This document shows positions 8,071-36,486 of a DNA stretch of 64,000 nucleotides, one piece after another. The position numbers and the translations under genes are program-made. Where the stretch lies: NCBI GenBank assembly GCA_965602015.1, contig OZ271918.1, positions 288,001-352,000 on the forward strand, given 5' to 3'. Numbering within the stretch: the stretch's first letter is position 1; each line of letters starts with the position of its first letter. Source of the DNA: Salinispira sp. GTDB taxonomy: Bacteria > Spirochaetota > Spirochaetia > DSM-27196 > Salinispiraceae. Under the pieces are notes generated by a model. The model saw only the letters and a list, made by a program, of their open reading frames with translations. It was not told the DNA's origin and did not search any database.

Positions 8071-8119
8071 GTATCGTATTCTGACCTGATTTACGCCCTC
8101 TTGCAATGACGCGATGGTA

Positions 8120-8264
8120 GTGCCCCCAAAACAGCTGATTTGTGCGGTGTAACTCTTTGTGTGAAAATAAAAAAGTGGAGTTTTATCAAGGGCTTCAATG
8201 GATGACAGATAAATTACATCATGAAAAGGGATTACGCTGTTTAAATCAGCTGTTTTGGGGGCAC
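8120..8264. repeat. Inverted-repeat doublet 1 (MITE/REPIN-like, 145 bp)
   Basis: GTGCCCCCAAAACAGCTGAT at 8120-8139 and its reverse complement at 8245-8264; 105-bp AT-rich interior; TA on both flanks. Confidence 0.92.
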
Positions 8265-8302
8265 TACAAACTGCTTTACAGCCGGCGCCCTCAGGCCATA
8301 GG

Positions 8303-9442
8303 ATGAAGCCTATGCAGGTAACAGTCGATCCGGTGACCTCCCGCCGGGATATGATGGATTTTGTGTATTTACCCAGAAAGCTCTACCGAGGAACCCCATG
8401 GGTTCCCCCGATCTGGTTAGACGAGAGACGGGGATACAAAAAGAAGACCAATCCTATCCTTGCTAACTCCGAATTTACCCTCTTACTTGCCCGGCGCAGC
8501 GGAAGGGTTGTGGGTCGCGTCCTGGTATACCTGGATCATAGCTGGAACGAGCACTTTGACGTCATGGATGGGCTGTTCGGCGCTCTCGATGCAGAAAGTG
8601 ATCCAGATGTGTACCGTGCGCTTCTCGAGGAAGCGGCACGTTGGTTACGTGCGAGGGGAGCTGAGCGGATGTTGGGACCCATCCATCCTGTTGCGGAGTT
8701 TTGGGGATTTCTGGTCGAAGGTTTTGAGGCGCCGCCGGTTTTTCTCACCCCCTGGAATCCCCCGTCAGCCGACGCATGTATCAAAGCGGCGGGTTTTGAA
8801 AAAGCCATGGATCTCCTGGCTTACGAAGCCGACTGCTCAAATGGGTATGTATTGAATAAGCGGTATGAGGACTTTTACCGGCGCTTTCGCTCGAGAAACA
8901 CCCGGTTTATCATCCGTCGGATTGATCAAAAGCGCTTCATGGAGGATGCCGAGCATATTTGGCGGATAACCGACCACAGTCTCGCGAATAACTGGGGATA
9001 CGTGCCGGTTCCCCGTGATGTGTTTCTCGATATGGTCAAGCGTTTGAAAGTAATCGTCGATCCGGAAGCAGTGCTTTTTGTTGAAAAAGACGGCGAACCC
9101 ATCGGCTATGCCCTGGGTTTTCCCGACGTCAATGAGCCTATCTCACAAATCAGGGGTAGGCTTTTGCCCTTCGGGTGGTTGTGGCTCCTTCTGCGGCGTC
9201 GGTCCCTCAAAACATATCGGCTGTTTGGGTTGGGCGTACTGCCGGAATATCATGGCATGGGGCTGGATGCGCTGATGTATGTTCATCTCGCACGGAGCCT
9301 TTCTCCCAAGGGAATCCGCCTGGAGGCCAACTGGATTCTTGAAAACAATCTTCCCATGAACAATGCGCTAAAGCGACTCGGATTGCGGCAGAGCAAACGA
9401 TACCGCCTTTACGAGCGGCCGCTTAGCCGCCGTATCAGGTAG
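8303..9442 (+). CDS. GNAT-fold N-acyltransferase (YghO / bacterial ceramide synthase-like family)
   Basis: F..LP.KLY...PWVPP...NP......LLARRSGRVVGR N-terminus; NNWGYVP; LGVLPEYHGMGL acyl-CoA motif; WILENN.PM. The ORF-track start at 8255 lies inside the repeat. Confidence 0.7.
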   Translation: MKPMQVTVDPVTSRRDMMDFVYLPRKLYRGTPWVPPIWLDERRGYKKKTNPILANSEFTLLLARRSGRVVGRVLVYLDHSWNEHFDVMDGLFGALDAESDPDVYRALLEEAARWLRARGAERMLGPIHPVAEFWGFLVEGFEAPPVFLTPWNPPSADACIKAAGFEKAMDLLAYEADCSNGYVLNKRYEDFYRRFRSRNTRFIIRRIDQKRFMEDAEHIWRITDHSLANNWGYVPVPRDVFLDMVKRLKVIVDPEAVLFVEKDGEPIGYALGFPDVNEPISQIRGRLLPFGWLWLLLRRRSLKTYRLFGLGVLPEYHGMGLDALMYVHLARSLSPKGIRLEANWILENNLPMNNALKRLGLRQSKRYRLYERPLSRRIR

Positions 9443-11796
9443 AGCCGGGAGCTAAAATCCCCCATAATCCGAACGCGTTCATTGAATCCGGTGCCGGTGA
9501 ACTGATTATACGGTCTGAAACCCGCATACATCAGCTCATCTCCTCCTGCCTTGACCTTCTGCATTTCGCCGGGAAACAGATAGTTGTCGGAGATGACCTT
9601 GTGTGCCAATCCGCGGATTCCCGAGGACTGCACTTCAAAGGGAACGTAGTCATTGATGAGCTCACCGAAACGGGCAATGTTCATGTAGTGGGGAAGCGTT
9701 TCAATTTCGTAGCTGGCATCAGGATCGAGATCGCGCAGCCGAATGGTTTCATAGACTGCAGCGGGATGCTGAATCTGCTGGAAGTACAGGAGCATACCCT
9801 GCTGGCCATCGGGATCCATCACCTGCCATATCGCCAGATTCGATTCGAAGGGCGAAGCCAGTCTGAGCCAGGAGCCAAACTGGAACAGCGTGCGATGGGC
9901 TTTGTACAATGCGACCTGCTTCGCAATTACCTTCTTCTCAAAAGGCGATAGCTTGGTGAGATTGAGCTCATAGCCCAACGCCCCGATTGCGGCAACATGG
10001 AATCTGGTTTCCAGGTCGTTACTCCTCAATACCTGATGTGAAGGATCCGAGCCCACATGGGATCCGGCGCAGTGCTGGGGGTAAAGCCAACTACTGCCGT
10101 GCTGAATTCGGACTCTGCTGCCGGGGTCGGTATTATCGCTTGTCCATGTCTGGGGCATAAAATAGAGCATGCCGCAGTCGAATCGGCTTCCTCCGCTGGC
10201 GCAGCTCTCGAAGAGGATTTCCGGCCAGGCCCTGGTGAGCCGCCCCAAAAGCTCGTACAAGCCCAGAATATAGCGGTGGGCCAGTTCTCCCTGGGATGCT
10301 GCCTCCAGGGCAGCTGAGAAATGATCCGAGACGGCGCGGTTCATATCCCACTTAACGTAGGCCGGACGACAGGTTTGGAAGAGCTCGTTCAACGTTTGCT
10401 CGAGGTGATCTATCACCTCGGAGTTTGTGAGATCTAGAATGAGCTGATTGCGCCCCAGGCTGGCTTTCCTACCAGGTACAGTGATGGCCCATTCCGGATG
10501 CGATCTGTATAAATCGCTGTCCGGCGAAACCATCTCGGGTTCCACCCAGATACCGAACTCCAGACCGAGCTTGCGCACCTTCGCCGAAAGAGATTCCAGT
10601 CCTCCCGGGAGCTTGTCCGTATCGGCCCTCCAGTCGCCAAGGGAACTGGTATCGTCATTTCGCCCAACAAACCACCCGTCGTCCAGCACAAACAGTTCCA
10701 TACCCAGGTCGGCACCAGCCTTCGCGAGTTTCATCAGTTTTGCTTCATTGAAGTCGAAGTACATGGCCTCCCAGCTGTTAAAGAGGATGGGCCGGGGCTT
10801 TCCCCTCCATGCGGGATGAATCAGGTAATCGCCGATATACCGGTGGAAATTAGCGCTCATACCGGAAAATCCCCGGTGACTAAAACTCATTATCGCTTCA
10901 GGGCTTGCAAAGATTTCTCCCGGATTGAGATTCCAGGAAAAGTCATCTTCAGCGATTCCCAGCTGAACACGGACCAGCTGGTGCGAGTTTTTCTCAACAA
11001 GGATCTGATGATTACCGCTATAAACCAGGGAAAACCCCCAGCAGTCCCCGCTTTCTTCGTTGCACCCCGGTCGGGATAGGGCGACAAACGGATTGTGTTC
11101 GGCACCGGAGCTCATTCGTCTTGAACCAAAATGAAGCTGACCAAAGGGCACTTCCCCCCATTGCAGCTGTTTTTCAGCTATCCACTTTCCCGGAAGACTG
11201 TACCACCGGTAATCATCCGGCGGAAGATCCAGGCTTGTTGACATAATACGCTCAAGACTGATGCCCTCGGTTTCGGCAACAACCCGTACCTGACGGGTAA
11301 TAATATCGCAGGATTCAAGTACCCGGTAGATAAGCTCGATTGCAGGATTGCCGGACCGATCTCTTAACCTGATAATCAAGGTGGCATCGCCGGTTCCGGC
11401 CGATGGAAGCGGGTTCACCCTGGGACGGGTTCCCGGAAGGGGGGCGATTGGAGGCAGGATGTCATCAATTATTTCATGGGAATCATAAATGAAATCGCCG
11501 ACCCGGTCGCCGTTTTTCCGGCGTATCTCAATTGCCGGACTGCGGTAATCACCTTTGCCGCCGCCGGGAAACTCAAGCATGCTTGTCTCAAGGTTAACTC
11601 CTGGATAGTCGGAAGAGTAGGCAGTCTCCGCACCGGGCATAAACTCGAAGTGTCTTATCATATCCCCATAGTTGCCGGGGGGAGAAATACGCCGTCCGTA
11701 ATAGAGCTGAGTCGGGTGCCCGCTTGAAAGCAGGCCGAGGATATAGCTGCTGTTGTTAGTTTGTAAATGAAAAAAATTATTTGAAGCACTGATCAT
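9409..11796 (-). CDS. Alpha-galactosidase, GH36
   Basis: NSWEAMYFDF, ELFVLDDGWF.GRNDD.SSLGDW, GIWVEPEMVS, YVKWDMNR, ESCASGGSRFD, WTSDNTD. Confidence 0.95.
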   Translation of the reverse strand: MISASNNFFHLQTNNSSYILGLLSSGHPTQLYYGRRISPPGNYGDMIRHFEFMPGAETAYSSDYPGVNLETSMLEFPGGGKGDYRSPAIEIRRKNGDRVGDFIYDSHEIIDDILPPIAPLPGTRPRVNPLPSAGTGDATLIIRLRDRSGNPAIELIYRVLESCDIITRQVRVVAETEGISLERIMSTSLDLPPDDYRWYSLPGKWIAEKQLQWGEVPFGQLHFGSRRMSSGAEHNPFVALSRPGCNEESGDCWGFSLVYSGNHQILVEKNSHQLVRVQLGIAEDDFSWNLNPGEIFASPEAIMSFSHRGFSGMSANFHRYIGDYLIHPAWRGKPRPILFNSWEAMYFDFNEAKLMKLAKAGADLGMELFVLDDGWFVGRNDDTSSLGDWRADTDKLPGGLESLSAKVRKLGLEFGIWVEPEMVSPDSDLYRSHPEWAITVPGRKASLGRNQLILDLTNSEVIDHLEQTLNELFQTCRPAYVKWDMNRAVSDHFSAALEAASQGELAHRYILGLYELLGRLTRAWPEILFESCASGGSRFDCGMLYFMPQTWTSDNTDPGSRVRIQHGSSWLYPQHCAGSHVGSDPSHQVLRSNDLETRFHVAAIGALGYELNLTKLSPFEKKVIAKQVALYKAHRTLFQFGSWLRLASPFESNLAIWQVMDPDGQQGMLLYFQQIQHPAAVYETIRLRDLDPDASYEIETLPHYMNIARFGELINDYVPFEVQSSGIRGLAHKVISDNYLFPGEMQKVKAGGDELMYAGFRPYNQFTGTGFNERVRIMGDFSSRLYLIRRLSGRS

Positions 11797-13418
11797 GAGT
11801 TTTCGCCACCGGACGTATCCGCTGCCTGTTCCTTTTCATGAGATGTGATTATCCCCGGGATTTGAATATAAATCGAAGTTCCATCGGTGCCGCTTTCGAT
11901 GCTCACTGTGCCGCCCAGCCGCTGAATGATATTAAACACGATGTTGAGTCCCAATCCCGTTCCGCCCCGGCCACGCTTGGTTGTCACGAATGGCTCAAAC
12001 GCTGTTTTGCGAATACCCTCGTCCATGCCGACGCCGTTATCAGAAAAAATGATGTTCAAATCCGACTTGTGAACTTCCAGCGCAATATGGATACGTGGTT
12101 CCCGTTCCAGAGAGGCAGGGAATGCGTGATTGAGGGAATTTTGGACCAAATTTGAGAAAATCTGCCAGAAAGCCCCGGGATGAGAATGCACCTCGATTTG
12201 TTCAGGACCTTCGACCGCTATCTCTTTGACGTGGCGTTTGACCTGATTGTATAAGCTGCTGAGAATCTCAGACAAATAGCTGCAAAAATCAAAATCCCGT
12301 TTTTCATCGACGAGCTGATCTGCGCTGACTTCCTTGAAACTTTGTACCAGCATCTGAGCCCGATTCAAATTCCCTTCAAGGATATCCAGGCTTTCCCGGG
12401 ATTTCTTGAGGATTTGCTCCATCTCAGTTTTTGTGAGGGTGCCTGCGCGGAACTTCTGCTCCATTTGCTGAAGTTCAAAACCAAGAAAACTCGCCGAAGT
12501 TATCCCCACCCCCAATGGAGTGTTTATTTCATGAGCCACGCCGGCCACAACCGAACCGAGACTTGCCAACTTTTCCGATTCGATGAGCTGATGCTGAGTG
12601 TGCTGAAGCATCTCGATATTGTACTCCAAAGCTTTTGTGCGTTCCACAACCCGGTTTTCCAGTTCCCTGGCGAAGTTACTGATTCTATCCGCCATGGTGT
12701 TGAAGCTGTCGCCGAGCATTGCAATTTCATCCCTGCCGTCATAGGTAAATCGCCGATGAAAATCACCAGAACCGAACTCTCCGACCGTCTCCACAAGTCG
12801 CGTGATTGGCGTTGTCAGTCCCCTGCTGAACAGTCGGATTAGCAAAATTGAAACGGCAATAATGAATAAACCCGAAGAGCCAAATCCTATAAGCAACAGA
12901 GTCACTGGTCGGTACAGGTCCGGAATATCTATCTGAATACCCACAAGCATGTTCCAGGGATGAAAATACCGGAAAATATGCAGAATCCTGGAATCACGCA
13001 CAACATATAGGTCTTGAGCGATAGGCAAATGACTTAAATCCCGGTTATCAAGAATGCTAAGAAACGCATCCGGAGCTGCCGGCGCGATGAGAAAGCCGTT
13101 TCGTTCCCGAGTGTACAAAACGAAGCTTGCGTCTCGCAAATCAATATTCTGAATTGCTTCGACAATTCTTGCCTGCCGGGTTTGCCGAAAAAAAACATCA
13201 TTCTGAATTCCTGCGGATTCCAGCAAACTATAGCCGTCGCTGAGCAGGAGATATGCCTGGTCAAGTTGTAGTTCGAGCACGGACTGCCGGGAGGAGATTA
13301 TGATTCTGGGGACCGTTAGGGAGATCAGGGCTGTCATAAATAGCACCGGTGCGATTATTAGCGGAAGAAAGCTGAGTTGGAGTTTGGTAGCATAAGGATA
13401 TTTGTTCAGCATGCTCAA
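11793..13418 (-). CDS. HAMP-domain sensor histidine kinase
   Basis: Two TMs, HAMP (DEIAMLGDSFNTM), EKLASLGSVVAGVAHEINTPLG, NLVQNS..HAF, DNGVGM, GGTGLGL. Confidence 0.93.
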   Translation of the reverse strand: MSMLNKYPYATKLQLSFLPLIIAPVLFMTALISLTVPRIIISSRQSVLELQLDQAYLLLSDGYSLLESAGIQNDVFFRQTRQARIVEAIQNIDLRDASFVLYTRERNGFLIAPAAPDAFLSILDNRDLSHLPIAQDLYVVRDSRILHIFRYFHPWNMLVGIQIDIPDLYRPVTLLLIGFGSSGLFIIAVSILLIRLFSRGLTTPITRLVETVGEFGSGDFHRRFTYDGRDEIAMLGDSFNTMADRISNFARELENRVVERTKALEYNIEMLQHTQHQLIESEKLASLGSVVAGVAHEINTPLGVGITSASFLGFELQQMEQKFRAGTLTKTEMEQILKKSRESLDILEGNLNRAQMLVQSFKEVSADQLVDEKRDFDFCSYLSEILSSLYNQVKRHVKEIAVEGPEQIEVHSHPGAFWQIFSNLVQNSLNHAFPASLEREPRIHIALEVHKSDLNIIFSDNGVGMDEGIRKTAFEPFVTTKRGRGGTGLGLNIVFNIIQRLGGTVSIESGTDGTSIYIQIPGIITSHEKEQAADTSGGENS

Positions 13419-13452
13419 ACCTCTGCAGAAAACCTATGGTGGGCGAAATATA

Positions 13453-13598
13453 GTGCCCCCAAAACAGCTGATTTAAACTCCCTAATTATTGCTCTTGCAA
13501 AAATGTACAAGCGAACCAACATATGAACGTTCGGCTCATTACATTATTTCTTTACATGATAGTATTTGCACCATCCCCATCAGCTGTTTTGGGGGCAC
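13453..13598. repeat. Inverted-repeat doublet 2 (MITE/REPIN-like, 146 bp)
   Basis: Same 20-bp ends at 13453-13472 and 13579-13598; 106-bp interior; TA on both flanks. Confidence 0.92.
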
Positions 13599-13635
13599 TA
13601 AGTAAAGTCTAAGCTATTGAAATAAGTTTTGACCA

Positions 13636-14331
13636 CTACTGCTCAGCTTTGTCCTTCTTCGCCCGGATCTTCCGGTAGAGCACCGGCACCAGGCTGATTA
13701 TCCCGAGAAATATTAACGCGAGTTGAATTTCAATGGTCAGCGGTGACTCGCCTTCTTGGAGGGTGGTGCCGGCGAACCCGAGATAGGTGTAAACAAAACT
13801 GCCGGGGATAATCCCCACAACAGTAGTCCAAAGGAAGGTACTGACTTTCACGGTAGTGAAGCCCGGAAGCAGGTTCACCAGAAAAAACGGGAATATCGGA
13901 ATAAACCGGAGCGTGAGCAGATATGAGCTGCCGTTTTGCTCTATTTCACGATTAAAACGGCTGAGTTTCTCACCGTATTTCTCCTGAACCTGACTTCCGA
14001 GGAAGTATCGGGCTGCAAGAAAGATTGCAAGGGCGCCGGTGCTCGCGCCAATGTTTACCAGGAGAGTTCCCAGGATCGGACCGAAAAGAAAACCGCCGCT
14101 GAGGGTCAGGAGTGTCGCACCGGGAATGCTCAATGCGACGGTGACAAAGTACAACAGCACAAATGCTATTGCAGATAACAGCAGTCGCTGGCTAACCTGC
14201 TCGAGCAGCTGATCCCTGGCCTCGTAGATCCTGCCGGGATCTATCGCATCGAGATATCCCTGTGATCTCGCCCAAAAGAATCCGCCAACAACAACTGCCA
14301 GTACTACCGCGAGTATGATTATTTTTTTCAT
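13636..14331 (-). CDS. TVP38/TMEM64 (DedA/SNARE-associated, YdjX-like) membrane protein
   Basis: ALSIPGATLLTLSGGFLFG, LRFIPIFPFFLVN, GIIPGSFVY. Confidence 0.88.
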   Translation of the reverse strand: MKKIIILAVVLAVVVGGFFWARSQGYLDAIDPGRIYEARDQLLEQVSQRLLLSAIAFVLLYFVTVALSIPGATLLTLSGGFLFGPILGTLLVNIGASTGALAIFLAARYFLGSQVQEKYGEKLSRFNREIEQNGSSYLLTLRFIPIFPFFLVNLLPGFTTVKVSTFLWTTVVGIIPGSFVYTYLGFAGTTLQEGESPLTIEIQLALIFLGIISLVPVLYRKIRAKKDKAEQ

Positions 14332-15125
14332 TAGAATTCTCCTGTGAATAAACCGCGTTTGCGGTAATAGCGTTTGAGCGCACCCTCGAGGATGCCATAC
14401 AGCGTTACGGGGATGGTGATAAAAATAAGGATTAATGCTGCGCTAATGGTCCAATCCGATGCCCGTATGAGGGGAACCAGATATCCGGAGTATGACGGTA
14501 CCAGTCCGCCTCCGATTAAGAATACCAGGAAGTACTCGGTGAAGGCTACTAAAAACACAACCATGCCGCCTGAGAGAAGAGCCGGAAGAAGCTGTGGTAT
14601 ATGCACGCTGACAATCCGCTTGAGGCTTCCCGCTCCCAGCATGGCGGCGCAGTTTTCCAAATCTTCCGTGTATGAAAGAAATCCTGAATATAAAGCGCGA
14701 AACATGTAGGGAAAGGAGCTGAGGCTGAGCACCAGTACAACCCCAAAAAAACTGTCGCTGATCCCCGCTCGAAGAAATAGTGGATAGAGGCCTAATGCGA
14801 ATACCACAGCCGGCACCAGGAGCGGGGCGAGAATCATGAGCTCGATGATATCCTTTCCCCGCAGATCTCTTCGGGCCAGCACGTGAGCCGCAGGCATGCT
14901 GATAAGTGTGCAGAGGAAAACCGTTGCCCCACTGTAGGAAACCGATGAAATCAAACTCCTGACGAGGGGCCGGCGATTGTCCGCCATGAATTCAAGAGCC
15001 CTGAAGCTCAACTGACGGGGAAGCAGTTCGGGAAAAGCCCACAGTCCGCTGATACTCCTGATAATTAGGTAAATAGGAGGAATAAGTGAGAGAATGATAA
15101 AAATCACCCTCCATCCGGTTTTCAT
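14331..15125 (-). CDS. ABC transporter permease (YnjC/PotC-like)
   Basis: Starts MKTGWRVIFII, overlapping the upstream stop; EAA-type loop LENCAAMLGAG; the longer ORF-track N-terminus is spurious. Confidence 0.85.
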   Translation of the reverse strand: MKTGWRVIFIILSLIPPIYLIIRSISGLWAFPELLPRQLSFRALEFMADNRRPLVRSLISSVSYSGATVFLCTLISMPAAHVLARRDLRGKDIIELMILAPLLVPAVVFALGLYPLFLRAGISDSFFGVVLVLSLSSFPYMFRALYSGFLSYTEDLENCAAMLGAGSLKRIVSVHIPQLLPALLSGGMVVFLVAFTEYFLVFLIGGGLVPSYSGYLVPLIRASDWTISAALILIFITIPVTLYGILEGALKRYYRKRGLFTGEF

Positions 15126-15979
15126 CGGTGGCCTCCTGAGCTCCCGCGCATAATGTCCCCGAGGCCTCGGCGCAGGACGGCGAAGATTACCAGAATTATC
15201 AGAGAAACCACCCATACAAGAAGCAAAAGCAGAAGGGCCTGAGGGCGTTGGGAAAGGCTTCCTTCGAAGAACAGACGGTATGCCCGGATTGATGCCATCG
15301 GTCTTGATGTTGAGCCGAGCAGGAAAGGTATATCGAATGAACCGAAGGAATACAGAAAAATTATCAGTCCAGAAACTGCGAGGTTTGAGCTGATGGCAGG
15401 CAGAATTACCGTGGTAAAGCGTCTGAGCGAACCTGCGCCAAGGATTTTTGCCGTGGTTAGCAAACGGCGGTCCAGTTTGCGCAGCGATGCAAGGACCATC
15501 AGCGTGACGAAGGCACTTTCTTTGTAAATATAGGCGAGGATAATGCCGGTACCTCTTTGATCGAATACCAGTACCGGAAAACTGTCGAGGGTTTGTGTGA
15601 TTCCGACATGGAATAGAAAGCTGGAGATCAATCCGCTTTGGGAAAAAAAAGCGATTACAAAAAATGCCGCGACAATATGCGGAATGATCAACGGGAAGGT
15701 ATACAAATACACCGGGAAGGTCCGAGGCTGCTGCCAGAGCCAGAGAGCAAGGCCGCCGCCCAACAGCAATGATATGGCCGTCGAGACTGCGGCGATTTCC
15801 AGGGAGTACCACAGGGAGGCAAAAGCCTCGGAACCAGCTTCCGAGAGTACTTCTGTTCCTGAGGAAAGGAGACTAATGCCCGCGTAAGCCGCACCGGCAA
15901 ACAACACCAAAACCGATGCCGTTAGTGCCGGTATTAGCGCAAGCAGGGAGGCCTCCTGTGACTTAGTTCCCCAGGACAT
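15122..15979 (-). CDS. ABC transporter permease (YnjC/PotB-like)
   Basis: PLIIPHIVAA, LLTTAKILGAG loop, FGSFDIPFLLG. Confidence 0.85.
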   Translation of the reverse strand: MSWGTKSQEASLLALIPALTASVLVLFAGAAYAGISLLSSGTEVLSEAGSEAFASLWYSLEIAAVSTAISLLLGGGLALWLWQQPRTFPVYLYTFPLIIPHIVAAFFVIAFFSQSGLISSFLFHVGITQTLDSFPVLVFDQRGTGIILAYIYKESAFVTLMVLASLRKLDRRLLTTAKILGAGSLRRFTTVILPAISSNLAVSGLIIFLYSFGSFDIPFLLGSTSRPMASIRAYRLFFEGSLSQRPQALLLLLLVWVVSLIILVIFAVLRRGLGDIMRGSSGGHR

Positions 15980-17201: not shown

Positions 17202-17204
17202 TGT

Positions 17205-18299: not shown

Positions 18300-18342
18300 C
18301 CTTTAAGCTTGCTAATTTCCCGGCTAATATTATATTGCTGAT

Positions 18343-19912: not shown

Positions 19913-20745
19913 ATAACCGCCTGTTTCAAACATTAACGATTGCTTTTTTTCTGGCAGTTGTGCTATCTGCCAGCCTCTGGGCCGGCGGCGAAGCCGAACT
20001 GTGGGACCGCTGGATTCTTTCAGATGAGTCCAGCGAAGAAGTGCTTGATCACGGCCCTTGGGGAGATTTCCTCAGCAAGTATCGCTATGTCGGTGAAAAT
20101 GGGGTGGCGCTCATTCGATATGATGAAGTAAGCGCAGATGATCTCAGAAGCCTCGATACCTATGTAGATTATTTACAAGCTGTGGAGGTTGATACCCTCA
20201 ATTCCCGTGAACAATACGCATTTTGGGTGAATCTCTACAACGCGGCGACTATACAGTTGATACTCAGGGAATACCCCGTAACAAGCATCCGCCGAATCTC
20301 CGGGGCCCGAATTACCAGTCCTGGTCCATGGGATCTAAAGCTGCTGCAGGTTGCCGGGGAAGAACTCAGCCTCGACGATATCGAACACCGGATCCTGCGT
20401 CCCCGCTGGAAGGATCCACGAGTGCATTTCGTCGTAAACTGCGCAAGCATCGGATGTCCTGATGTCCCTCCCGTCCCCCTGACCGCTGAAAATCAAGACC
20501 GTTTGATGGAAGAAGGTGCTCGGATATACCTCAACCATCCGCGAGGTATCAAGGCTGACGGCAGGCGGCTTGTCATTAGCTCGATCTTCGATTGGTTTTC
20601 TGTAGATTTTGGTGAGAACGAGGCTGATATTCTGGATTTCATCGATGAATACCGCGATGTCGATCAGCTATTATCCGGTATTGGGAGAAGTCGGGAGAAT
20701 GTTGCTATCCGTTATGATTACGACTGGTCATTGAATTATGAATGA
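19909..20745 (+). CDS. DUF547 domain secreted protein
   Basis: Signal peptide; AFWVNLYNA.T, SLDDIEHRILR, DPRVHFVVNCASIGCP, YDWSLN. Confidence 0.9.
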   Translation: MNNRLFQTLTIAFFLAVVLSASLWAGGEAELWDRWILSDESSEEVLDHGPWGDFLSKYRYVGENGVALIRYDEVSADDLRSLDTYVDYLQAVEVDTLNSREQYAFWVNLYNAATIQLILREYPVTSIRRISGARITSPGPWDLKLLQVAGEELSLDDIEHRILRPRWKDPRVHFVVNCASIGCPDVPPVPLTAENQDRLMEEGARIYLNHPRGIKADGRRLVISSIFDWFSVDFGENEADILDFIDEYRDVDQLLSGIGRSRENVAIRYDYDWSLNYE

Positions 20746-20746
20746 A

Positions 20747-21996
20747 GTGTCCCCAAAACAGCTGATCGAATCAACATAACTCTTTTGCCAGTAGTCTTCT
20801 ATGACACGATTACCAGTTCATAGGAGATTAGCATGGCATTAATCCCTCGTTTCTGTCCGTACTCGGACTGTTCTCAGCATCATCGCGACAGAGAATCAAG
20901 CCGGTGCTGGTTTGTCCGAAACGGCCACTATCACTGCCGCCGCCTCGGTTCTTCCCAGCGCTATCGCTGCAAGCATTGCCGTCGATACTTCTGCGAAAGC
21001 GCGTTCCACCTCGATTATCGCGCACATCATCGCCTCGATTACCGGCGCATCTTCTCTTCAATCAACTCGGCCTCCGGCATTCGCGATATTGCCCGGGAGT
21101 TTTATGTCACCGACAAGGTCATTCTCAATCGGCTGAGCCGATTGTCCCGTCAGGCAATCGCTGCCATGGCCCAGTTATCGAATGATCATACAATCGATGA
21201 GGATATTGCCGTTGATGGGTTTGAAAGCTTTGTGTACAGCCAATACTGGCCAAACAATTTCACTCTCGCGGTAGGTTCCGACAGCCAGGTTGTCTATGCG
21301 TGCGACTATGCACAGATGCGGCGCAAAGGGCGGATGACCCCCGCACAAAAGCGCCGGCGCGATGAGCTCAATCGCCGGTATCCTATTGCAGGGGGACAAA
21401 TTGCGCGATCTTTCCGGGATGTGATAAACACCATTCTTCCCCGGTGGAAGGCTTATTCATCTAAGAAGCCATGCTATCTCTTGAGCGATGAAAAACTCGA
21501 ATACCGCCGTGAGCTCTGCGCTCACCGGGACTGGGCGGCGTTGGAAAATGCAGGGCGGGTTATCCATCACCGAACCTCATCGAGGGTGGTCAGGACCACT
21601 GAAAACCCGCTGTTTCCTGTGAATTACCTGGATCGGGAGATACGAAAGGATCAATCCTGTCATGTCCGCCAGAGTGTCCAATGGTCAAAATCGGTGAACA
21701 ACAGCATGGAGCGGATGATGATCTACATCGCCTATCATAACCTGCTCAAGCCGTATCGGATAAACGGACGTAACGATATCAGCCATGGTGAGGTTGCCGG
21801 GTTTGACCGAAGGCGGGTACTCACGTTGGCAAAAAGGATGTTTACACAGCGGGCCTTCGTTCATCATCTGGTGTTGGACATCAGCCAATGGAAGACCTGG
21901 CACCGGATCTGGAAGACACCGGTGAGTGCGCTGAAGATCGATCTACCCGATTATGCGGTGGCCTGAGGAGCGGGAAATCAGCTGTTTTGGGGGCAC
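20747..21996 (+). mobile_element. IS-like element (1250 bp) bounded by the 20-bp repeat as terminal inverted repeats
   Basis: Left GTGTCCCCAAAACAGCTGAT 20747-20766 (1 mismatch) and right ATCAGCTGTTTTGGGGGCAC 21977-21996 enclose one transposase-like ORF. No direct target duplication is seen; the flanks are inverted (AATGAA/TTCATT). Confidence 0.8.
20833..21966 (+). CDS. IS1-like transposase: Zn ribbon + HTH + RNase H/DDE-type domain
   Basis: CPYSDC...RNG...QRYRCKHCRRYF (InsA-like Zn ribbon), GIRDIAREFYV (HTH), IAVDGFESF, LLSDEK..Y, PVNYLDREIR, YHNLLKP. AGGAG RBS at 20822. Confidence 0.75.
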   Translation: MALIPRFCPYSDCSQHHRDRESSRCWFVRNGHYHCRRLGSSQRYRCKHCRRYFCESAFHLDYRAHHRLDYRRIFSSINSASGIRDIAREFYVTDKVILNRLSRLSRQAIAAMAQLSNDHTIDEDIAVDGFESFVYSQYWPNNFTLAVGSDSQVVYACDYAQMRRKGRMTPAQKRRRDELNRRYPIAGGQIARSFRDVINTILPRWKAYSSKKPCYLLSDEKLEYRRELCAHRDWAALENAGRVIHHRTSSRVVRTTENPLFPVNYLDREIRKDQSCHVRQSVQWSKSVNNSMERMMIYIAYHNLLKPYRINGRNDISHGEVAGFDRRRVLTLAKRMFTQRAFVHHLVLDISQWKTWHRIWKTPVSALKIDLPDYAVA

Positions 21997-22035
21997 TTCA
22001 TTGATATTCCCCGTGGAGCAATCTATTCTTAGGCT

Positions 22036-28422: not shown

Positions 28423-28508
28423 GGACCCTCCTGATGGGCGTCAGGCTTATAATCATACGACGGCCTTTGCCACTGGACAAGCAGAGATTTCGTGCTAAGA
28501 TTTTCCCC

Positions 28509-29333: not shown

Positions 29334-29566
29334 CGGGCATCAATTTTATGCTTGTGGGCATGGGAGGGGTGTTCTCCTTTCTGCTGATTCTGGTGATAAG
29401 CATGAACGCCATGCACAGGCTGGTTGCCCTGTGGGAGCGCTCGGAATCCAATAAGACCCAAGCGCTCGGCGAAGATGTAACCGACGAGGAAGGTGCACGC
29501 AGCGCCGCAATCGTCGCAGCCCTTCATTATCATAAAACGCGTACTTCAAAGAGGAAAATACAATGA
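29318..29566 (+). CDS. oadG: Oxaloacetate decarboxylase gamma subunit
   Basis: MLVGMGGVFSFLLILV TM, AAIVAALHYH; directly before oadA. Confidence 0.85.
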   Translation: MGNFLTGINFMLVGMGGVFSFLLILVISMNAMHRLVALWERSESNKTQALGEDVTDEEGARSAAIVAALHYHKTRTSKRKIQ

Positions 29567-31464
29567 AAAATATCGATGTGATGATTACCGCATTTCGCGA
29601 CGGTTTCCAGTCGGTGTACGGCGCCCGGGTATTCACCGATGATTTTATACCGGCGATTGAAGCCGCCCGGGATGCGGGAATAACCCATTTCGAGGCCGGA
29701 GGAGGCGCCCGATTCCAGGCCCTATACTTCTACTGCAACGAAGACGCCTTTGACATGATGGATCGGTTTCGATCCGCCGCAGGTCCCGAGGCGAATCTGC
29801 AGACCCTGTCGAGAGGAGTCAATGTGGTGGGCCTTGATTCCCAGCCGAGCGACATCATTGATTTGCACGCAAAAATGTTCAAAAAGCACGGCATGACGAC
29901 AATCAGGAATTTTGATGCCCTGAATGACGTTAATAATCTCATTCCCTCCGGGCGGGCAATCAAGGCTGCCGGGTTAAAACATGAGGTGTCGGTCACCCTC
30001 ATGTCTCTGCCGCCGGGAACCCCCGGTGAGGATATCGCTCATACGCCGGAGTTTTATTCAGCGACCCTTCGCCGTATCCTTGATTCGGGGGTGGAATTCG
30101 ATTCGGTCTGCTACAAGGATGCTTCGGGCACCTCGACGCCGAAAACCGTGTACGAGTCAATTAAGCAGGCGAAGGCCATGCTCCCCCCGGAAATACCGGT
30201 GCGTTTTCACAGCCACGATACCGTGGGTACCTGTATCGCCCAATACACCGCGGCACTGGAGGCCGGTGCAAATGGTATCGACTTGTCCATGGCTCCGGTA
30301 TCCGGCGGCACCTGCCAAAGCGACGTGATTTCCATGTGGCATGCACTGCGGGGAACCGAGTTCGACTTGGGCATCGATATTGATAAAATGCGGGAAGCCG
30401 AGGAAGTCCTAAAGGATTGCATGAAGGATTATTTTCTGCCCCCCGAATCAAAAGCCGTCGAGCCGCTGATCCCTTTTTCACCGATGCCCGGCGGAGCCCT
30501 CACCGCCAATACCCAGATGCTCAGGGATAACGGGATTATGGACCGGTATCCGGAAATAATCGCCAAGATGAGAGAGGTGGTTAAACTCGGCGGATTCGGC
30601 ACCAGCGTAACTCCCGTGTCTCAGTTTTATTTCCAGCAGGCGTTTAATAACGCCATGTTCGGAGACTGGGCCAAAATCGCCAAGGGCTACGGCAAAATGG
30701 TTCTGGGCTACTTCGGGAAAACCCCGGTTCCCGCCGACCCGGAAATCGTTAAGATTGCATCTGAGCAGTTGGGTCTGGAGCCCACGGATCGCCGGGTCGT
30801 GGAGATCAACGACGCCGATCCTGGAAAAGGTATTGCCGCCGCCGTTCGTGCGCTGGAGGCCCAGGGGCTTCCCGTCACCAATGAGAATATTTTTATAGCG
30901 GCGACCTGCAAAGAAAAAGGACTTCAGTTTCTAAAAGGAGAAGCAACCGTGGGGGTGCGAAAGCATAGCGACGGTAAAGTGCAGGAAACATCATCGCCTG
31001 CAGCCCAAACCGCTTCGCCCCCTGTCAAAACCGAGCAGCAAAGCGCCGGGGCAGCATACCGGGTCAATGTGGACGGCCGCGAGTACCGCGTACAGGTTAG
31101 GGAAGACGGTACGGCAGACCTCGCCGGCCCTCCCTACGCGGCGCAGGTACCCGCTACTTCAGCTCACAGCACCGCGGTTCCCGCACATAACGGCCCTGTC
31201 AACGATGCTCCGCCTAGCGGCAGTCCGACCGTCGCTTCCCCGGCAGTCGCAGCGAGCATAGACGCGCCGCTTCCCGGCAAAATTATCAGAGTAATGAAGG
31301 TCGCAGGCGACCGGGTGCACCGGGGTGAGACCGTGCTTGTCATTGAGGCGATGAAGATGGAAACCGAGCTCAAGAGTCCGGTGGACGGCACGGTGGCGGA
31401 AGTTCTGGTGGACTCCGGGAAGCAGGTAAATACCGGTGAGTGCCTGGTTACCTTTTTAGGATAA
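29563..31464 (+). CDS. oadA: Na+-translocating oxaloacetate decarboxylase alpha subunit with biotinyl domain
   Basis: [34 protein letters not shown]-terminal EAMKME. Confidence 0.92.
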
Positions 31465-31472
31465 GTGCTGCT

Positions 31473-32648
31473 ATGAATATTGCGCAATCCCTCGGAGAGC
31501 TGTGGCGATCAACCGGGGCCTTCGGCTTTACCCAATCCTCAATGATGTTATTCGGATGGCTCCCCGGGGAGGCGGTGATGATAGTCATCGCCCTGGTTCT
31601 CCTGTATTTGGGTATCGTCCGGGGCTTCGAACCCTTGCTGCTCATTCCCATCGGCTTCGGCGGATTGCTGGCAAACATTCCCCTGGCGGACATAGCCGGT
31701 CCCGACGGCTTTCTGGGTATCATTTCCGCTTTCGGAGTGGACAATGGTCTGTTCCCCCTTCTGATTTTTATGGGGGTAGGCGCCATGACGGACTTCGGAC
31801 CGCTTCTGGCCCATCCGAAAACTGCGCTGCTGGGAGCAGCCGCCCAATTTGGCATATTTTTTACCTTTCTCGCGGCTCTCGGGCTCTCGGACATAATTCC
31901 CGGCGTCGAGTTTTCCATTCGCGAAGCGTCGGCCATCAGCATAATCGGAGGGGCCGACGGACCTACGGCTATCTACGTGGCCAACAAGCTGGCGGACAAT
32001 CTCCTGGGGGCCATAGCCGTTGCGGCCTATTCATATATGGCTCTGGTGCCCATCATCCAGCCGCCGATTATGCGCATGCTTACCAGCAAGGAGGAGCGGC
32101 GCATAAAAATGAAACAGCTCCGACCGGTGTCCCGACGGGAAAAGATTATTTTTCCCGTATTGGTCCTTATTCTGTGCGCCTTGTTCCTTCCCGACGCCAC
32201 TCCCCTTATCGGAGCACTGATGTTCGGCAACCTCGCCCGGGAGGCCGGCGTGGTGGACAGGCTTTCTGAAACCATGCAGAATTCCATGATCAATATCGTC
32301 ACAATTCTGTTAGGTCTCTCTGTAGGCTCGAAGCTACAGGCTGCCAAGTTCCTCAAAGCCGAAACACTAGGCATACTTGTTCTCGGTCTGCTCGCTTTCA
32401 GCGTCGGTACCGCGGCCGGAGTTCTTCTGGGCAAACTTATGAATCGCCTGTCCCGGGAAAAGATCAATCCCCTTATCGGAGCAGCGGGAGTCTCGGCGGT
32501 GCCCATGGCGGCCAGGGTGGCGAGCAAGCTCGGGCAGGATGAGGATCCCGATAACATCCTGCTGATGCATGCCATGGGGCCGAATGTGGCGGGGGTCATA
32601 GGTTCCGCAGTGGCGGCCGGCATCCTGATTGCCCTCAGTTCAGTGTAA
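31473..32648 (+). CDS. oadB: Na+-translocating decarboxylase beta subunit
   Basis: [62 protein letters not shown]. Confidence 0.95.
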
Positions 32649-32730
32649 TTTCTGCTCAGTGTAAATTATGACCCGCGACTGGCAAAGCTGATTAAAAACG
32701 CCTACAATTTCTATCAAAAGGCAGGGTAAT

Positions 32731-34086
32731 TTGGCAGGGACACTTTTGCGAACCATAGAACTCCTCAAATCTGCGGTCGACGAACTCTCGATACCCGCAT
32801 CCTTGGCTGATATCGAACGGGTGGGAATTATGGTCAACAAGGCGATGTCCACTCAGGCCAGAAGTTTTCACACTGCAGAGCATATTTTCAATTTGGTAAG
32901 ACCGGGGTACCCCCTGCAAACCATGGCGGCCCTCTTTCACGACATCGTCTACTACACGATTGATCAGGGTTTTGTTCCTGAGATCGAAGAAATTCTCATG
33001 AACTATGTGGAGGAGAGGGATGACGGGGTCTATATCCGGGATGATCTGGACCCGGAGGCCAGCTGTATTAGAGGTGTCCTCGGCGTCTTTGGTTTTGCTC
33101 CGGGTGATAAGCTTCCGGCTTTCGGAGGCATGAACGAGCTGCTTTCCGCAGTGGTGTTCGTCCATGAATTCGAAAACATGATGAACCACCGCCACATTCT
33201 GGAAGTCATCAGCTATATTGAAGCGACCATTCCCTTCAGAAAACCAAATGACAGCGGGCAAACTCCGCCTGAGGCCCTGGCCGAGAGAATACGCATGCTC
33301 AACGATAAATATAGTCTTGAGCTGAGCGATGAACACATCGTCGAAACCGTCCAGGCGGCAGTACGCTTCGCCAATACCGATGTGGAGAATTTTGCGGAAA
33401 AAGATGTGGCAGCCTTCCTGGATAACACCTGGAAGCTGCTGCCGGAAACCAATCCCTCCCTGCGGACAACCGGTCTGTACACCGTTAAAAATTACCGAAT
33501 AGCCCTGCAAAAAATGGAAGGCTTTATGAACTTCCTCGATCCCGGGCTGATTTTTTCATCTTTTGAGGGAATGCCTGGTGAAAACGAGCTTGGGGAACTC
33601 AATTCCCGGGCCAAACGGAATGTCATTGCTGCCCGGGACTATTTGGGAATTAAACTGTTAACCACCGGAATTCTGGAGGCAATAGCCGATGTCTCCGGAG
33701 GCGATGTTCCCATCGCCCTTCTCATGGGTGATATCTCCGATGAGGAGAGCCTGGAGAAGTTTGAGAATATGCTGCCCCCACTGAAAGTGCAGGCCGGTGC
33801 GGCAATCGGATCTACGGTTTTCCGTTTGCTTGCTGAAGGGCGCAAACAGGGAAGTTCATTCGATCTTAACCGAAGCCCGTTATCAAAATTCATATACCTG
33901 CACATCGGCACCACCCACATGAAGAAATATCTGCAGCCCCTCGCCGAAATGTTTGACGGCAAACGGAGCGCCGAATCCTTTCTCAAGGAACTGCCGCGGG
34001 ATTTGGTGCTGCCGGTTGTCAAAGCCTGTGGTGAAATGGCCTTTACCCGGAAAACCCCCCTTCTTGATTTCGCCGCGAAGCTCTGA
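32731..34086 (+). CDS. Hypothetical protein, possibly HD-superfamily metal-dependent phosphohydrolase-like
   Basis: RSFHTAEH...AALFHDIVY...IEAT...NTDV pattern resembles predicted HD hydrolases. Confidence 0.55.
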   Translation: MAGTLLRTIELLKSAVDELSIPASLADIERVGIMVNKAMSTQARSFHTAEHIFNLVRPGYPLQTMAALFHDIVYYTIDQGFVPEIEEILMNYVEERDDGVYIRDDLDPEASCIRGVLGVFGFAPGDKLPAFGGMNELLSAVVFVHEFENMMNHRHILEVISYIEATIPFRKPNDSGQTPPEALAERIRMLNDKYSLELSDEHIVETVQAAVRFANTDVENFAEKDVAAFLDNTWKLLPETNPSLRTTGLYTVKNYRIALQKMEGFMNFLDPGLIFSSFEGMPGENELGELNSRAKRNVIAARDYLGIKLLTTGILEAIADVSGGDVPIALLMGDISDEESLEKFENMLPPLKVQAGAAIGSTVFRLLAEGRKQGSSFDLNRSPLSKFIYLHIGTTHMKKYLQPLAEMFDGKRSAESFLKELPRDLVLPVVKACGEMAFTRKTPLLDFAAKL

Positions 34087-34096
34087 CAAATACGAA

Positions 34097-34116
34097 GTGC
34101 CCCCAAAACAGCTGAT
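34097..34116 (+). repeat. Solo copy of the 20-bp repeat
   Basis: Exact GTGCCCCCAAAACAGCTGAT followed by TTAAA; no partner ~145 bp away. Confidence 0.9.
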
Positions 34117-34196
34117 TTAAATCTTCTTCGCAACTAAATTCCAGCCTTCCGGGCTGGGCCGGGGGAGCTCCGTGGACTGCCCCCGGTAAGCCTTCT

Positions 34197-35594
34197 CTAT
34201 CGCAAGCGGTAGACCCGGTATTCGTATGGCTCAAAATCAAGCGTTCCTGCGGTTTGCATTTTGTTGCCGCTGAACAGTTCGATATATTCTCCCTGATACT
34301 CTTCCGGCAGGGTGAGCTGCTGGACTTCATCGGTTTTGTTCACCAGCACCATCAGTTCCTCCGCTTCAGCGCGCCGTACATATGATAGTACTGCCCGGCC
34401 GTTGTCCTGCCGTACCCGCTTGATATCCCCGAAACGGAGAGCCGGGCTTGACTGCCAGATTCGGCCGAGTTCTGTGTAAAAGCTTCGGATTTCGGGATTC
34501 TGGTCCCAGTCGTAGTTCCATTTGTCGAAAAACGCCCAACTGTCTTCATTGCCGATTTCCTGTCCGTTGTAAATGAGGGGCACGCCGGGCATAAATAGAT
34601 GGCCGACGGCTGCCGCCATGGCGCCTTCCTGTCCGCCGAAAAGCTCACTCGGGGCGGCATCCCAGGCGGTTTCGTCATGATTGGTGGTAAAACGCATATA
34701 TCCCGCATCGCCGATATTCTTCTGTTCGGTTTCGACGCTTGCTACGAATACGCTGGCTCCGCCGCCCCGCCAGACATTCTTAAGGTTCCCGTAGGCTGAC
34801 CATGCATAAATCAGCTGGTAGCCCGCGTCTCTCAGGGTTGCATCGCCTGTTTCACCGAGTAACAGCACTGGTTTGATGTCCTTCACCCGGGGGATGCTCT
34901 CCTCCCAAAAATCCCTGGGAATCATCGAGGCAGTATCGACCCGGTAACCGTCGATATCAAACTCCGAAACCCAGTACATCATCACATTGGTGAGTTCTTC
35001 CCTCAGTTCAGCGTTGGAAAAATCCAGGTCTGCCACATCGCTCCAGTCGGCTACCGGAGGCATCATGTTTCCCGAGTCATCTCGTGAGTACCATTCGGGG
35101 TTTTCTTCAACCCAGGGGTGATCCCATGCGGTGTGGTTTATCACCAGGTCGAGGATGATATGCATGCCTCTGCGGTGTATTTCATCGACCAGGGTCCGGA
35201 AGTCCTCATCGCTTCCGTATGCCGGGTCTACGGCGTAGTAGTCGGTAATTGAATAGGGCGAACCCAGAGGACCCTTCCGCTCGATTTCGCCGATGGGATG
35301 TATCGGCATCAGCCAGATGGTCTCGACGCCCAGGGACTGAATTTCATCAAGCCGGGGAATGATCGCCTGAAAGGTTCCTTCTGGAGTAAAGTCACGGACA
35401 AACAACTCGTAAATAAGACCTTCCTGTATCCACGAGGGCTCCAGGCGGGTTTCAACGATTTCCTGGCCGGCCCTGGTGCCTTCCGGCGGCGGGGGCAGGC
35501 TGGGTCCACAGGAAATCGCCACAGTGGAAAATACCGCAACCATTATTGCGGAGAAAATCTTTACCGGGTTAGAACTGAATCGGGTATTGAACAT
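34197..35594 (-). CDS. GH13 alpha-amylase family lipoprotein
   Basis: Lipobox AISC; IWLMPIHP, DLVINHTAWDH, DGYRVDTA, LLGE, TTNHDE. Confidence 0.92.
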   Translation of the reverse strand: MFNTRFSSNPVKIFSAIMVAVFSTVAISCGPSLPPPPEGTRAGQEIVETRLEPSWIQEGLIYELFVRDFTPEGTFQAIIPRLDEIQSLGVETIWLMPIHPIGEIERKGPLGSPYSITDYYAVDPAYGSDEDFRTLVDEIHRRGMHIILDLVINHTAWDHPWVEENPEWYSRDDSGNMMPPVADWSDVADLDFSNAELREELTNVMMYWVSEFDIDGYRVDTASMIPRDFWEESIPRVKDIKPVLLLGETGDATLRDAGYQLIYAWSAYGNLKNVWRGGGASVFVASVETEQKNIGDAGYMRFTTNHDETAWDAAPSELFGGQEGAMAAAVGHLFMPGVPLIYNGQEIGNEDSWAFFDKWNYDWDQNPEIRSFYTELGRIWQSSPALRFGDIKRVRQDNGRAVLSYVRRAEAEELMVLVNKTDEVQQLTLPEEYQGEYIELFSGNKMQTAGTLDFEPYEYRVYRLR

Positions 35595-35714
35595 CGCATA
35601 TTGCTCCTGTTTTTCTTGATAAAATCCCAGGAGAATCCTAACAGCAGATCGGGGAAATCACAAGTTTTCTCTCCGGTATTGAACCATCGGTCAGAAAGGC
35701 GTAGCTTATAGCCG

Positions 35715-36320
35715 ATGAATATCTGTTATGCTAATCCCTTTGCTTGGAAAAGAGTAAAAATTCTGACGGCAGCGTTCTTTTTATTCGGACTTATTTTGTC
35801 TCCGCTGTTCGCCCATCCCCATATCTGGATAGATGTAGAGTTTCGACCGACTATACAAAACGGCGTCATGGAGAGTCTGGAAATCCTCTGGATCTTCGAT
35901 GAATGGTACAGCGCCGGGTACCTCCTGGACTTCGATACCGACGGTAACCGCAGCTTCGATCCCCGGGAGGTGGCGAACATCTACGAAAATGCGTTTCGCG
36001 GATTGGATGAGCTCGATTATTTCACCCAGATAACTTACCGCGGAAGGAGACTCGATATTCCCGGTCCGCGGATGTTCGCCGCTGATTTTATCGATGGGCG
36101 ATTGATATATCGATTTGCCATGGACTTTAATCAACGAGTGTCGGCCGGGGGCGAACTGGTGGCTCTATGTGTGGATCCGGAATACTACATCGCGTTTTTT
36201 TCCAATGAAGTCAGGCCTGAAGGGGACGGGAGCCTGAGGCCGATTCTCCGGGAGACCATCATCGACTTTGACATCTGGGGCAGCCACGGCTTGCAAACCA
36301 TGGTTATTTCTCGCAGATAA
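35715..36320 (+). CDS. DUF1007 family periplasmic protein (ZevA-like)
   Basis: Signal peptide then AHPHIWID, W.FDEWYS, DPEYYIAF. Confidence 0.85.
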   Translation: MNICYANPFAWKRVKILTAAFFLFGLILSPLFAHPHIWIDVEFRPTIQNGVMESLEILWIFDEWYSAGYLLDFDTDGNRSFDPREVANIYENAFRGLDELDYFTQITYRGRRLDIPGPRMFAADFIDGRLIYRFAMDFNQRVSAGGELVALCVDPEYYIAFFSNEVRPEGDGSLRPILRETIIDFDIWGSHGLQTMVISRR

Positions 36321-36326
36321 TATTCA

Positions 36327-36471
36327 GTGCCCCCAAAACAGCTGATTTTCAGGCTGTAAAATGCTCTATGATAAGCAGAAACGGGCATTTTTCTCGAGCG
36401 CGCGATTGACGGCGCTTAATTCCAATCCTGTGAACAGATTACATGATTTAAATCAGCTGTTTTGGGGGCAC
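36327..36471. repeat. Inverted-repeat doublet 3 (MITE/REPIN-like, 145 bp)
   Basis: Same 20-bp ends at 36327-36346 and 36452-36471; 105-bp interior. Confidence 0.92.
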
Positions 36472-36486
36472 TACTAAAAATACCCA

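Follow-up and report, generated by a model that had tools for sequence, protein, structure and literature searches.

Fixed-length inverted-repeat doublets in a Salinispira genome: candidate miniature elements of an IS1-related insertion sequence with two predicted DNABII bend sites

INTRODUCTION

A stretch of 64,000 nucleotides from Salinispira sp. (assembly GCA_965602015.1, contig OZ271918.1, positions 288,001 to 352,000; hereafter the window, with positions counted from its first base) contains ten copies of a 20-bp sequence for which 0.01 copies would be expected by chance. A first-pass annotation had described three intergenic inverted doublets of this 20-mer, with lengths of 145, 146 and 145 bp; its coordinates, lengths and the ten motif copies were found to be exact. 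The doublets were thought to resemble REPINs, doublets of REP (repetitive extragenic palindromic) sequences maintained by RAYT proteins, except that an IS1-like protein was named as the partner. What kind of element are these doublets, and why is their length so constant? Here they are interpreted as probable MITEs (miniature transposable elements with inverted repeats) of a 1.25-kb insertion sequence (IS) related to IS1, shaped by the need to fold.

RESULTS

The repeat forms a genome-wide family of fixed spacing

The genome that holds the window (G000; 3.87 Mb, one contig) contained 127 copies of the 20-mer at up to three mismatches, and the large genome-wide family that had been proposed was thus found. 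Among 41 genomes searched, the end sequence was confined to G000 and a congeneric sister species (G001). Thirty short inverted doublets were present in G000 (135–147 bp), with lengths of 145 bp in 16, 146 bp in seven, 144 bp in four, and 147, 143 and 135 bp in one each. A sharp peak near 145 bp had been predicted for a genome scan with the 20-mer, and 29 of the 30 doublets indeed fell at 143–147 bp. The other copies made up 12 intact elements of 1248–1250 bp, four palindromes of 44–49 bp and about 36 solo repeats.

Two features of the distribution were observed. Only 3 of 128 repeats were located in the 0.8 Mb that starts at the GC-skew maximum (G000:C1:1.4-2.2 Mb), which is likely the terminus side, and 26 of the 36 solos pointed inward at the 3′ end of a gene according to rough gene calls.

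Target duplications place the true ends 4 bp outside the 20-mer

The 20-mer had been taken as the terminus of the element. In a set of 61 elements (46 from G000, and 15 from G001, of which 20 regions were fetched), direct repeats of 9 bp, with one mismatch allowed, were found at offset 4 outside the 20-mer in eight elements, against 0.05 expected, and in none at offset 0. A target duplication directly at the edge of the 20-mer (TA type or none) was rejected, because the signal was present at offset 4 only; the same offset was found in four other subfamilies. With the 4 bp added on each side, the repeat extends to 24 bp and the element to 153 bp, and the original terminus had to be moved outward. 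When duplications of 8–11 bp were allowed, 7 of the 46 G000 elements retained one (6 of 34 among the short elements), and none of the four elements in the window did so. The outer four bases were common within subfamilies and variable between them, the fourth alone being fixed (A in 100 of 110). Against each of the two ends of Escherichia coli IS1A, the 24-bp end showed 16 identities over 23 positions when one gap was allowed.

Insertion sites differed between the two species. Five orthologous gaps that were inspected held an element in G001 and none in G000, and one held a short element in G001 and a long element in G000. The latter gap raised the idea that interiors are swapped between fixed ends, which was rejected because the flanks differ and another site had been hit independently in two species, a hot spot being the simpler explanation. 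The G001 stretches orthologous to window elements 1 and 2 had no repeat, and their gene neighbours differed. One terminator-like T run was hit by two subfamilies in G001 and G002 and was empty in G000 (L010, L022 and G000:C1:2096400), which shows that hot spots exist. For the sister short elements at G000:C1:61028 and 2669032, the T-rich duplications matched better crosswise than within each element, possibly owing to a past rearrangement between them.

The origin of the solos was also considered. Precise one-ended deletion that keeps the duplication was not above chance among them, and matching duplications were not found when solos were paired at long range as composite elements. Joints in contigs from four sequencing runs of one sample were judged to be repeat artefacts and were evidence neither way.

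The interiors are diverged relatives of each other

The interiors had been described as unrelated to each other. After orientation and alignment, the 30 G000 interiors showed a mean identity of 52.6%, compared with 43.6% for shuffles (435 pairs), and some subfamilies exceeded 90%; the three window interiors were only 46–58% identical in pairs, which makes the earlier impression understandable. A leave-one-out profile recovered 26 of the 30 at z of 4.9–10.7, including the window copies (8.4, 4.9 and 9.4), and four copies of one divergent subfamily scored 2.2–3.3. As judged from these alignments, the interiors are homologous and form one old, nearly indel-free family. It had been said that near-identical MITE subfamilies would speak against the REPIN-like proposal; close subfamilies do exist, yet the 30 copies fell into 24 clusters at 90% identity and 20 at 75%.

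As had been reported, the interiors lacked extended similarity to the 1.25-kb element, the best match being only 10 bp (E 0.09), and derivation of the interiors from the IS body was rejected on this ground; the left end of the 1.25-kb element, however, has the internal motif at the same offset as the short elements. No interior-like stretch without a nearby end was found genome-wide. On folding and comparison with Rfam, structured RNA was rejected as an explanation of the interiors (mean folding z –0.6; 6 of 44 below –2), as was a simple 10.5-bp A/T periodicity, which was weak after trimming (p = 0.23). A 15-bp period was seen instead, which is due to the arms of the motif.

A symmetric IHF/Hbb-type motif is located at a fixed distance from each tip

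When both ends were read inward, with G000 and G001 pooled, a symmetric motif, YAA-N4-TT-N7-AA-N4-TTR, was found to begin at a distance of 34 bp from the tip, which is 10 bp beyond the inner edge of the 20-mer. Each short element thereby has two predicted sites with centres about 60 bp apart. The mean motif score was 7.6 of 10, compared with 3.4 in 1000 shuffles, for the 58 ends of the 29 elements that remained after removal of 15 near-duplicates; the motif was defined on this set, which is therefore not an independent test. Five other genomes with different end sequences, not used for the definition, gave the best offset at 30 from the [GC]TG in all five cases. Their means were 7.3 in G014 (seven elements), 6.6 in G081 (four), 6.5 in G048 (two), 6.2 in G086 (two) and 5.3 in G083 (ten), with nulls of 3.0–3.8; the sets of G086 and G048 are marginal at two elements each.

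Autonomous relatives were divided by their repeats. Those with a repeat ending in GAT at positions 22–24 scored 6–9 at the left end in 11 of 11 cases, and 13 others scored 1–4 (one mis-anchored row was dropped). The label was clustered on the transposase tree, yet about five changes were needed, with G014 and G048 on long, distant branches. The symmetric motif did not score in the ends of IS1A. The elements of G002 (L050-L069, L082-L089) had internal short inverted motifs of their own and no bend site, which suggests a different host protein.

The motif is the IHF arm AA-N4-TTR mirrored about TT and AA steps 9 bp apart. This matches the arm consensus and the spacing of the kinked steps published for IHF. 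Among the matches of the main DNABII protein of G000 (L048), Hbb (2NP2, E 3.5e-24) was narrowly preceded by two IHF entries of 204 residues and was the closest natural single chain. When the 376,575 free intergenic positions of G000 were ranked with a matrix built only from element ends (135), ranks one, four and five went to 3327662, 3332209 and 3324205, all less than 8 kb from dnaA. The matrix scores upstream of dnaA were 14.5, 10.9, 10.3, 10.3 and 8.2 in five of six genomes. Borrelia Hbb has been reported to bind between dnaA and dnaN. As a separate observation, the dnaA cluster of bend-site matches (G000:C1:3324205-3332240) marks the likely replication origin region.

Lengths change in steps of about one helical turn

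Measured between [GC]TG ends, motif-bearing subfamilies had lengths of 124 bp (one copy), 135 bp (one), 143–147 bp, 156–157 bp (two) and 167–168 bp (two). The 143–147 bp class comprised 29 elements in G000, 14 in G001, 5 in G014, 4 in G081, 10 in G083 and 1 in G086. The five classes fitted a period of 10.8–10.9 bp (R 0.997), which was reached in 0 of 20,000 random draws in a post hoc test. Lengths one turn apart were also found without this motif, in G002 (129 bp in 10 copies, 139–142 bp in 26) and in G095 (71 bp in three, 81 bp in two). G093, also without the motif, had lengths of 110–111, 174–176 and 217–221 bp.

In several genomes the length classes were separated by about 11 bp, which supports, as far as sequence comparison goes, a constraint of helical phase on length. 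The first-pass annotation had proposed that only the ends and their spacing are under selection. The constraint on length agreed with this; the proposal was too narrow in that the two internal protein-site motifs are also kept.

The partner transposase is related to IS1

The 377-aa protein encoded by the long element had no Pfam match. It scored 35.5 bits against the NCBI IS1 model NF033558, below the cut-off of 100, and 76 of 82 homologues matched this model only weakly. A profile was built from 82 of the 130 homologues found. It matched IS1 InsA with an hhalign probability of 94.9 (E 4.4e-8), and the zinc-finger residues C8, C13, C46 and C49 were invariant in 82 of 82. The predicted structure (mean confidence, pLDDT, 91) aligned with integrase and transposase cores, with Z 11.4 and a root-mean-square deviation of 3.1 Å over 155 residues to the integrase of mouse mammary tumour virus; Foldseek agreed. 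An IS1-like partner with an integrase fold, in preference to an HUH enzyme, was thus found as had been proposed.

D128 and D219 were invariant. Glu126 is the catalytic residue of InsB; in an ungapped alignment anchored on the shared C-terminal motif it corresponded to N264, which is Asn in 81 of 82 homologues. The triad is therefore predicted to be D-D-N (D128, D219, N264), with Asn in the place of the Glu of the IS1 D-D-E triad. D267, present in 80 of 82, is an alternative third ligand, and a distant homologue has Asp at 264. An Asn-for-Glu triad occurs in one IS1595 group, which could not be confirmed in the literature; PF12762 (DDE_Tnp_IS1595) was matched by one of 82 homologues (E 0.0039), and the zinc domain shared by IS1 and IS1595 by 17 of 82, weakly. 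All 12 copies had a single frame of 377 codons without an InsA/InsB frameshift; single-frame relatives of IS1 exist. Because the curated threshold, the frameshift and the Glu of the triad were all lacking, the element was filed as IS1-related rather than as a member of IS1, an assignment made from sequence and predicted structure.

The 12 transposase copies were intact and differed by 14–62 nucleotides, with proportions of synonymous and nonsynonymous differences (pS and pN) of 0.113 and 0.012, respectively (pN/pS 0.10). They were mosaic, 1220 of 2628 site pairs being incompatible. Homologues were present in 44 of 70 genomes searched in the order; none was found in the plasmid collection. A second subfamily of the same transposase group was also observed in G000. 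It consisted of one interrupted copy (G000:C1:2757299-2760654, 34% identity) with an ATPase-like gene inside, and of about three doublets of 110–111 bp and four solos with a different end sequence (also at 196382, 2753585 and 2982255); doublets of 111 bp were also found in G001.

Features of the window

Table 1. Members of the repeat family and their predicted bend sites (IHF/Hbb type) in the window; scores are motif positions matched.
Feature	Position	Strand	Description
Short element 1	8116..8268		153 bp between tips; inverted repeats of 24 bp at 8116-8139 and 8245-8268, with variable outer 4 bp
Predicted bend site, left end of element 1	8150..8174		8/10
Predicted bend site, right end of element 1	8210..8234		8/10
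Short element 2	13449..13602		154 bp
Predicted bend site, left end of element 2	13483..13507		8/10
Predicted bend site, right end of element 2	13544..13568		8/10
Autonomous IS1-related insertion sequence	20743..22000	+	Shares the 24-bp ends; belongs to the 12 intact copies
Predicted bend site, left end of insertion sequence	20777..20801		8/10 in all 12 copies
377-aa transposase	20833..21966	+	Cys4 zinc finger and helix-turn-helix (HTH) resembling those of IS1 InsA; core of RNase H/integrase type; triad D128, D219, N264 (predicted)
Solo inverted repeat	34093..34116	+	Perfect; followed by about 6 bp of interior-like sequence
Short element 3	36323..36475		153 bp
Predicted bend site, left end of element 3	36357..36381		7/10
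Predicted bend site, right end of element 3	36417..36441		8/10
Truncated repeat	43361..43373	-	Outer 13 bp; adjoins IS110-family element 43374-44679
Solo inverted repeat	54290..54348	+	Truncated interior with partial site (6/10)

The flanks of element 1 showed 6 mismatches in 9 positions, and its target duplication was not retained. A sister of element 2 at genome position 210877 was more than 90% identical, with the same tips and a 9-bp target duplication with one mismatch. The right end of the IS is coding and had no bend site. Beside element 2, a weakly UptA-like membrane gene (13636-14331) had no counterpart in the orthologous G001 stretch. An alpha-amylase-like gene and a DUF1007 gene lie between the solo at 34093 and the right end of element 3, which point towards each other (34093-36475, 2.4 kb); this pair of repeats had no common target duplication, which gave no evidence of a composite element.

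The IS110-family element at 43374-44679 (minus strand; open reading frame 43548-44600 with PF01548 and PF02371) has about ten genome copies at 99% identity. At the right ends of ten copies, seven adjoined a full family repeat, one the truncated repeat of the window, one a repeat of a sister subfamily and one another sequence. The target sites around these copies could not be reconstructed. No Rfam match was found in the window.

DISCUSSION

The short elements are short and non-coding, share terminal repeats with an autonomous element, have target duplications and occupy insertion sites that differ between G000 and G001, as MITEs do. Our preferred reading, which we consider probable, is that the doublets are 153-bp non-autonomous MITEs of the 1.25-kb IS1-related IS, with interiors likely serving as a folding scaffold with two predicted DNABII sites. 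From the shared ends only, we infer that the partner transposase would mobilize them in trans. The zinc finger-HTH is predicted to bind repeat positions 5–24, and the integrase-fold core (D128, D219, N264) would cut 4 bp further out, by distance, the tip sequence mattering little; both ends would be needed in one complex. DNA of 153 bp, about one persistence length, is too stiff to loop unaided, and two bends would therefore close it. A host IHF/Hbb-like DNABII dimer may kink the DNA of each site at its TT step and its AA step, which are 9 bp apart, and two U-turns centred 47 bp from each tip would close the loop, so that the ends meet for synapsis. Because the ends must stay on the right helical face, only whole-turn changes of length would survive; the interior bases would mostly drift, since DNABII-type proteins read shape and tolerate substitutions. 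Insertion presumably occurs into AT-rich intergenic DNA with a 9-bp stagger, and most duplications would later be lost by adjacent deletion or recombination, the elements decaying into solos and 44-bp palindromes.

Several observations weigh against this reading. The bend-site model leaves the perfection of the ends, solos included, unaccounted for. The outer rungs of the length ladder rest on one, one, two and two copies, and the ladder test was post hoc. Lengths were quantised in G002 without a fixed motif, and those of G077 (10 fetched) were broad, at 76–146 bp, and likewise without the motif; in the sister subfamilies of G077, G093 and G095 the motif score was at the null level (2.9–3.1). 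A good site (at least 6 of 10) was present at one end only in 7 of the 10 G083 copies, and the region upstream of dnaA in G014 did not yield the motif (score 4.6). The InsB match of the transposase profile was weak (E 0.028). Concerning the binder, a second, weaker DNABII-like domain is located at the end of a longer frame (G000:C1:53556-53834, L049; about 300 codons open), and the binder may be a heterodimer; one paper describes Hbb as largely non-specific, kinking AT steps.

The motif might instead be a passenger of ordinary MITEs, a site that regulates the promoter of the transposase at the left IS end and was copied to both ends of a MITE made from two left ends, with the fixed length reflecting low indel rates. 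We consider this unlikely, although several points agree with it: in the autonomous element the site is confined to the left end, motif-less subfamilies spread short elements too, and IHF sites in MITEs are known from the Correia elements of Neisseria and from QMITE1 of Coxiella. In close subfamilies, moreover, motif positions varied almost as often as the rest (16/120 against 94/511, p = 0.23), that is, they were not significantly better kept, which also weighs against the preferred reading. A passenger does not readily explain why the motif is kept at both ends of interiors diverged down to about 53% identity, why subfamilies placed far apart on the transposase tree have it at an identical offset, or why the alternative lengths lie on steps of about 11 bp and not at random. 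The state of the ends bears on another alternative, namely that the repeats are maintained for the host: selection (chromosome looping, or regulation via bound transposase) or continual correction would keep ends and bend sites, giving a functional analogue of REPINs with an integrase-fold enzyme. Of 126 repeat copies, 119 had no mismatch at the fixed positions, a tail of decayed copies was lacking, and no interior lacked a nearby end; perfect copies were 33 of 36 among solos compared with 59 of 60 among doublet arms, whereas REPIN singlets are described as less conserved than doublets. In the seven elements with a duplication, the duplications differed at 6 of 61 positions and the arms at 0 of 126 (p = 0.001), which suggests that ends are kept after insertion, in a sample that is small and T-rich and in which two cases may be a swapped pair. 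The synonymous divergence of the 12 intact, mosaic transposase copies (pS 0.11) is ten times the published within-genome mean Ks (synonymous divergence) of IS1, 0.011; the same source gives an overall mean of 0.033. Against this alternative, IS5 and IS630 reach Ks values of 0.2–0.5 within genomes. Further, insertion sites at the compared loci were not common to the sister species, that is, positions are not conserved; the enzyme belongs to a multi-copy element with its own ends and is not a fixed host gene; and a large, recombining, species-wide pool of young copies could look alike. We therefore regard maintenance for the host as improbable.

A wider form of the same idea is that widespread IS1-related D-D-N transposases of spirochaetes run REPIN-like populations with a geometric identity (two mirrored bend sites, whole-turn lengths), in which ends are kept perfect by host selection or transposase-driven correction and the repeats are chromosome-organising or regulatory sites; we offer this as a speculation with some, if a minor, chance of being right. 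True REPINs, in contrast, are REP doublets that form hairpins and that a RAYT enzyme of the HUH type moves as single-stranded DNA. Inverted, extragenic doublets at a fixed distance with singlets as remnants do resemble the REPIN description, and some ends start with GTAG. Nevertheless, Y1_Tnp (PF01797) was not found in G000 (99.67% complete), target duplications of 8–9 bp are present, the same ends bound an integrase-fold gene in 12 copies, many other tips occur besides GTAG, and the interiors fold little better than shuffles. The true-REPIN reading is already largely refuted and hardly credible, and the REPIN framing of the first-pass annotation was not retained.

Returning to the preferred reading, an IS with MITEs is an ordinary class, and IHF sites in MITEs were already known; what is added is a two-site, fixed-offset, turn-quantised architecture. 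With IS1 (E. coli IS1A; InsA and InsAB′) the element shares a zinc finger-HTH N-terminus, an integrase fold, ends of 23–24 bp with TG at positions 6–7, an 8–9 bp duplication and, if the host protein is as proposed, IHF, which is named as a host factor of IS1 (PMC12428005). It differs in its one 377-aa reading frame without a frameshift, its low score against the IS1 model, the Asn for InsB Glu126, freely varying first three end bases, abundant MITEs of fixed length, and a motif that does not score in IS1A. The Correia elements and QMITE1 are likewise non-coding, AT-rich and intergenic, with terminal repeats, duplications that fade with age and an internal DNABII site, and the ends of QMITE2, as target of IS1111, are likewise hit by an IS110-family element (PMC10969869, PMC5896051). 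As described, however, they vary widely in size and have one canonical IHF site, whereas the present MITEs have two mirrored sites at a fixed distance from the tip, lengths within 2 bp or in whole-turn steps, and the same geometry under unrelated ends.

A tested precedent for the proposed mechanism is, by analogy, the left end of the type I-F CRISPR-associated transposon VchCAST. There a host bending site in the transposon end aids transpososome assembly, IHF dependence being shown with 10-bp periodic effects of spacing (PMC10201428). That transposon is large and Tn7-like, with several TnsB sites, a one-sided IHF consensus between them and an unrelated enzyme architecture, and is not miniature. 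REPINs, too, persist as populations of inverted doublets whose spacing is fixed and whose spacers have diverged, with singlets as remnants (PMC3116915); the present repeats are unlike them in having target duplications, an integrase-fold multi-copy partner, arms that are not REP hairpins and singlets nearly as perfect as the doublets, and no RAYT was found in G000. The literature searched, which excluded ISfinder and most subscription papers, gave no account of this family or of MITEs with two sites and quantised lengths, a result that does not show that none has been published. An IHF site between inverted repeats also occurs in the RIB/RIP (BIME-1) elements of E. coli, which are REP-based with one site; to our knowledge they have no DDE-type partner.

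If read in this way, the family amounts to a mutagenesis experiment made by nature on the geometry of the transpososome, with dozens of diverged copies, unrelated ends, one site position and a length ladder of about 11 bp. Host-factor dependence and phasing become testable on a 153-bp substrate, and the motif provides a candidate symmetric consensus for a spirochaete Hbb-like protein. The family also points to an unclassified, common group of transposases with a predicted Asn in the triad and sequence-tolerant tips.

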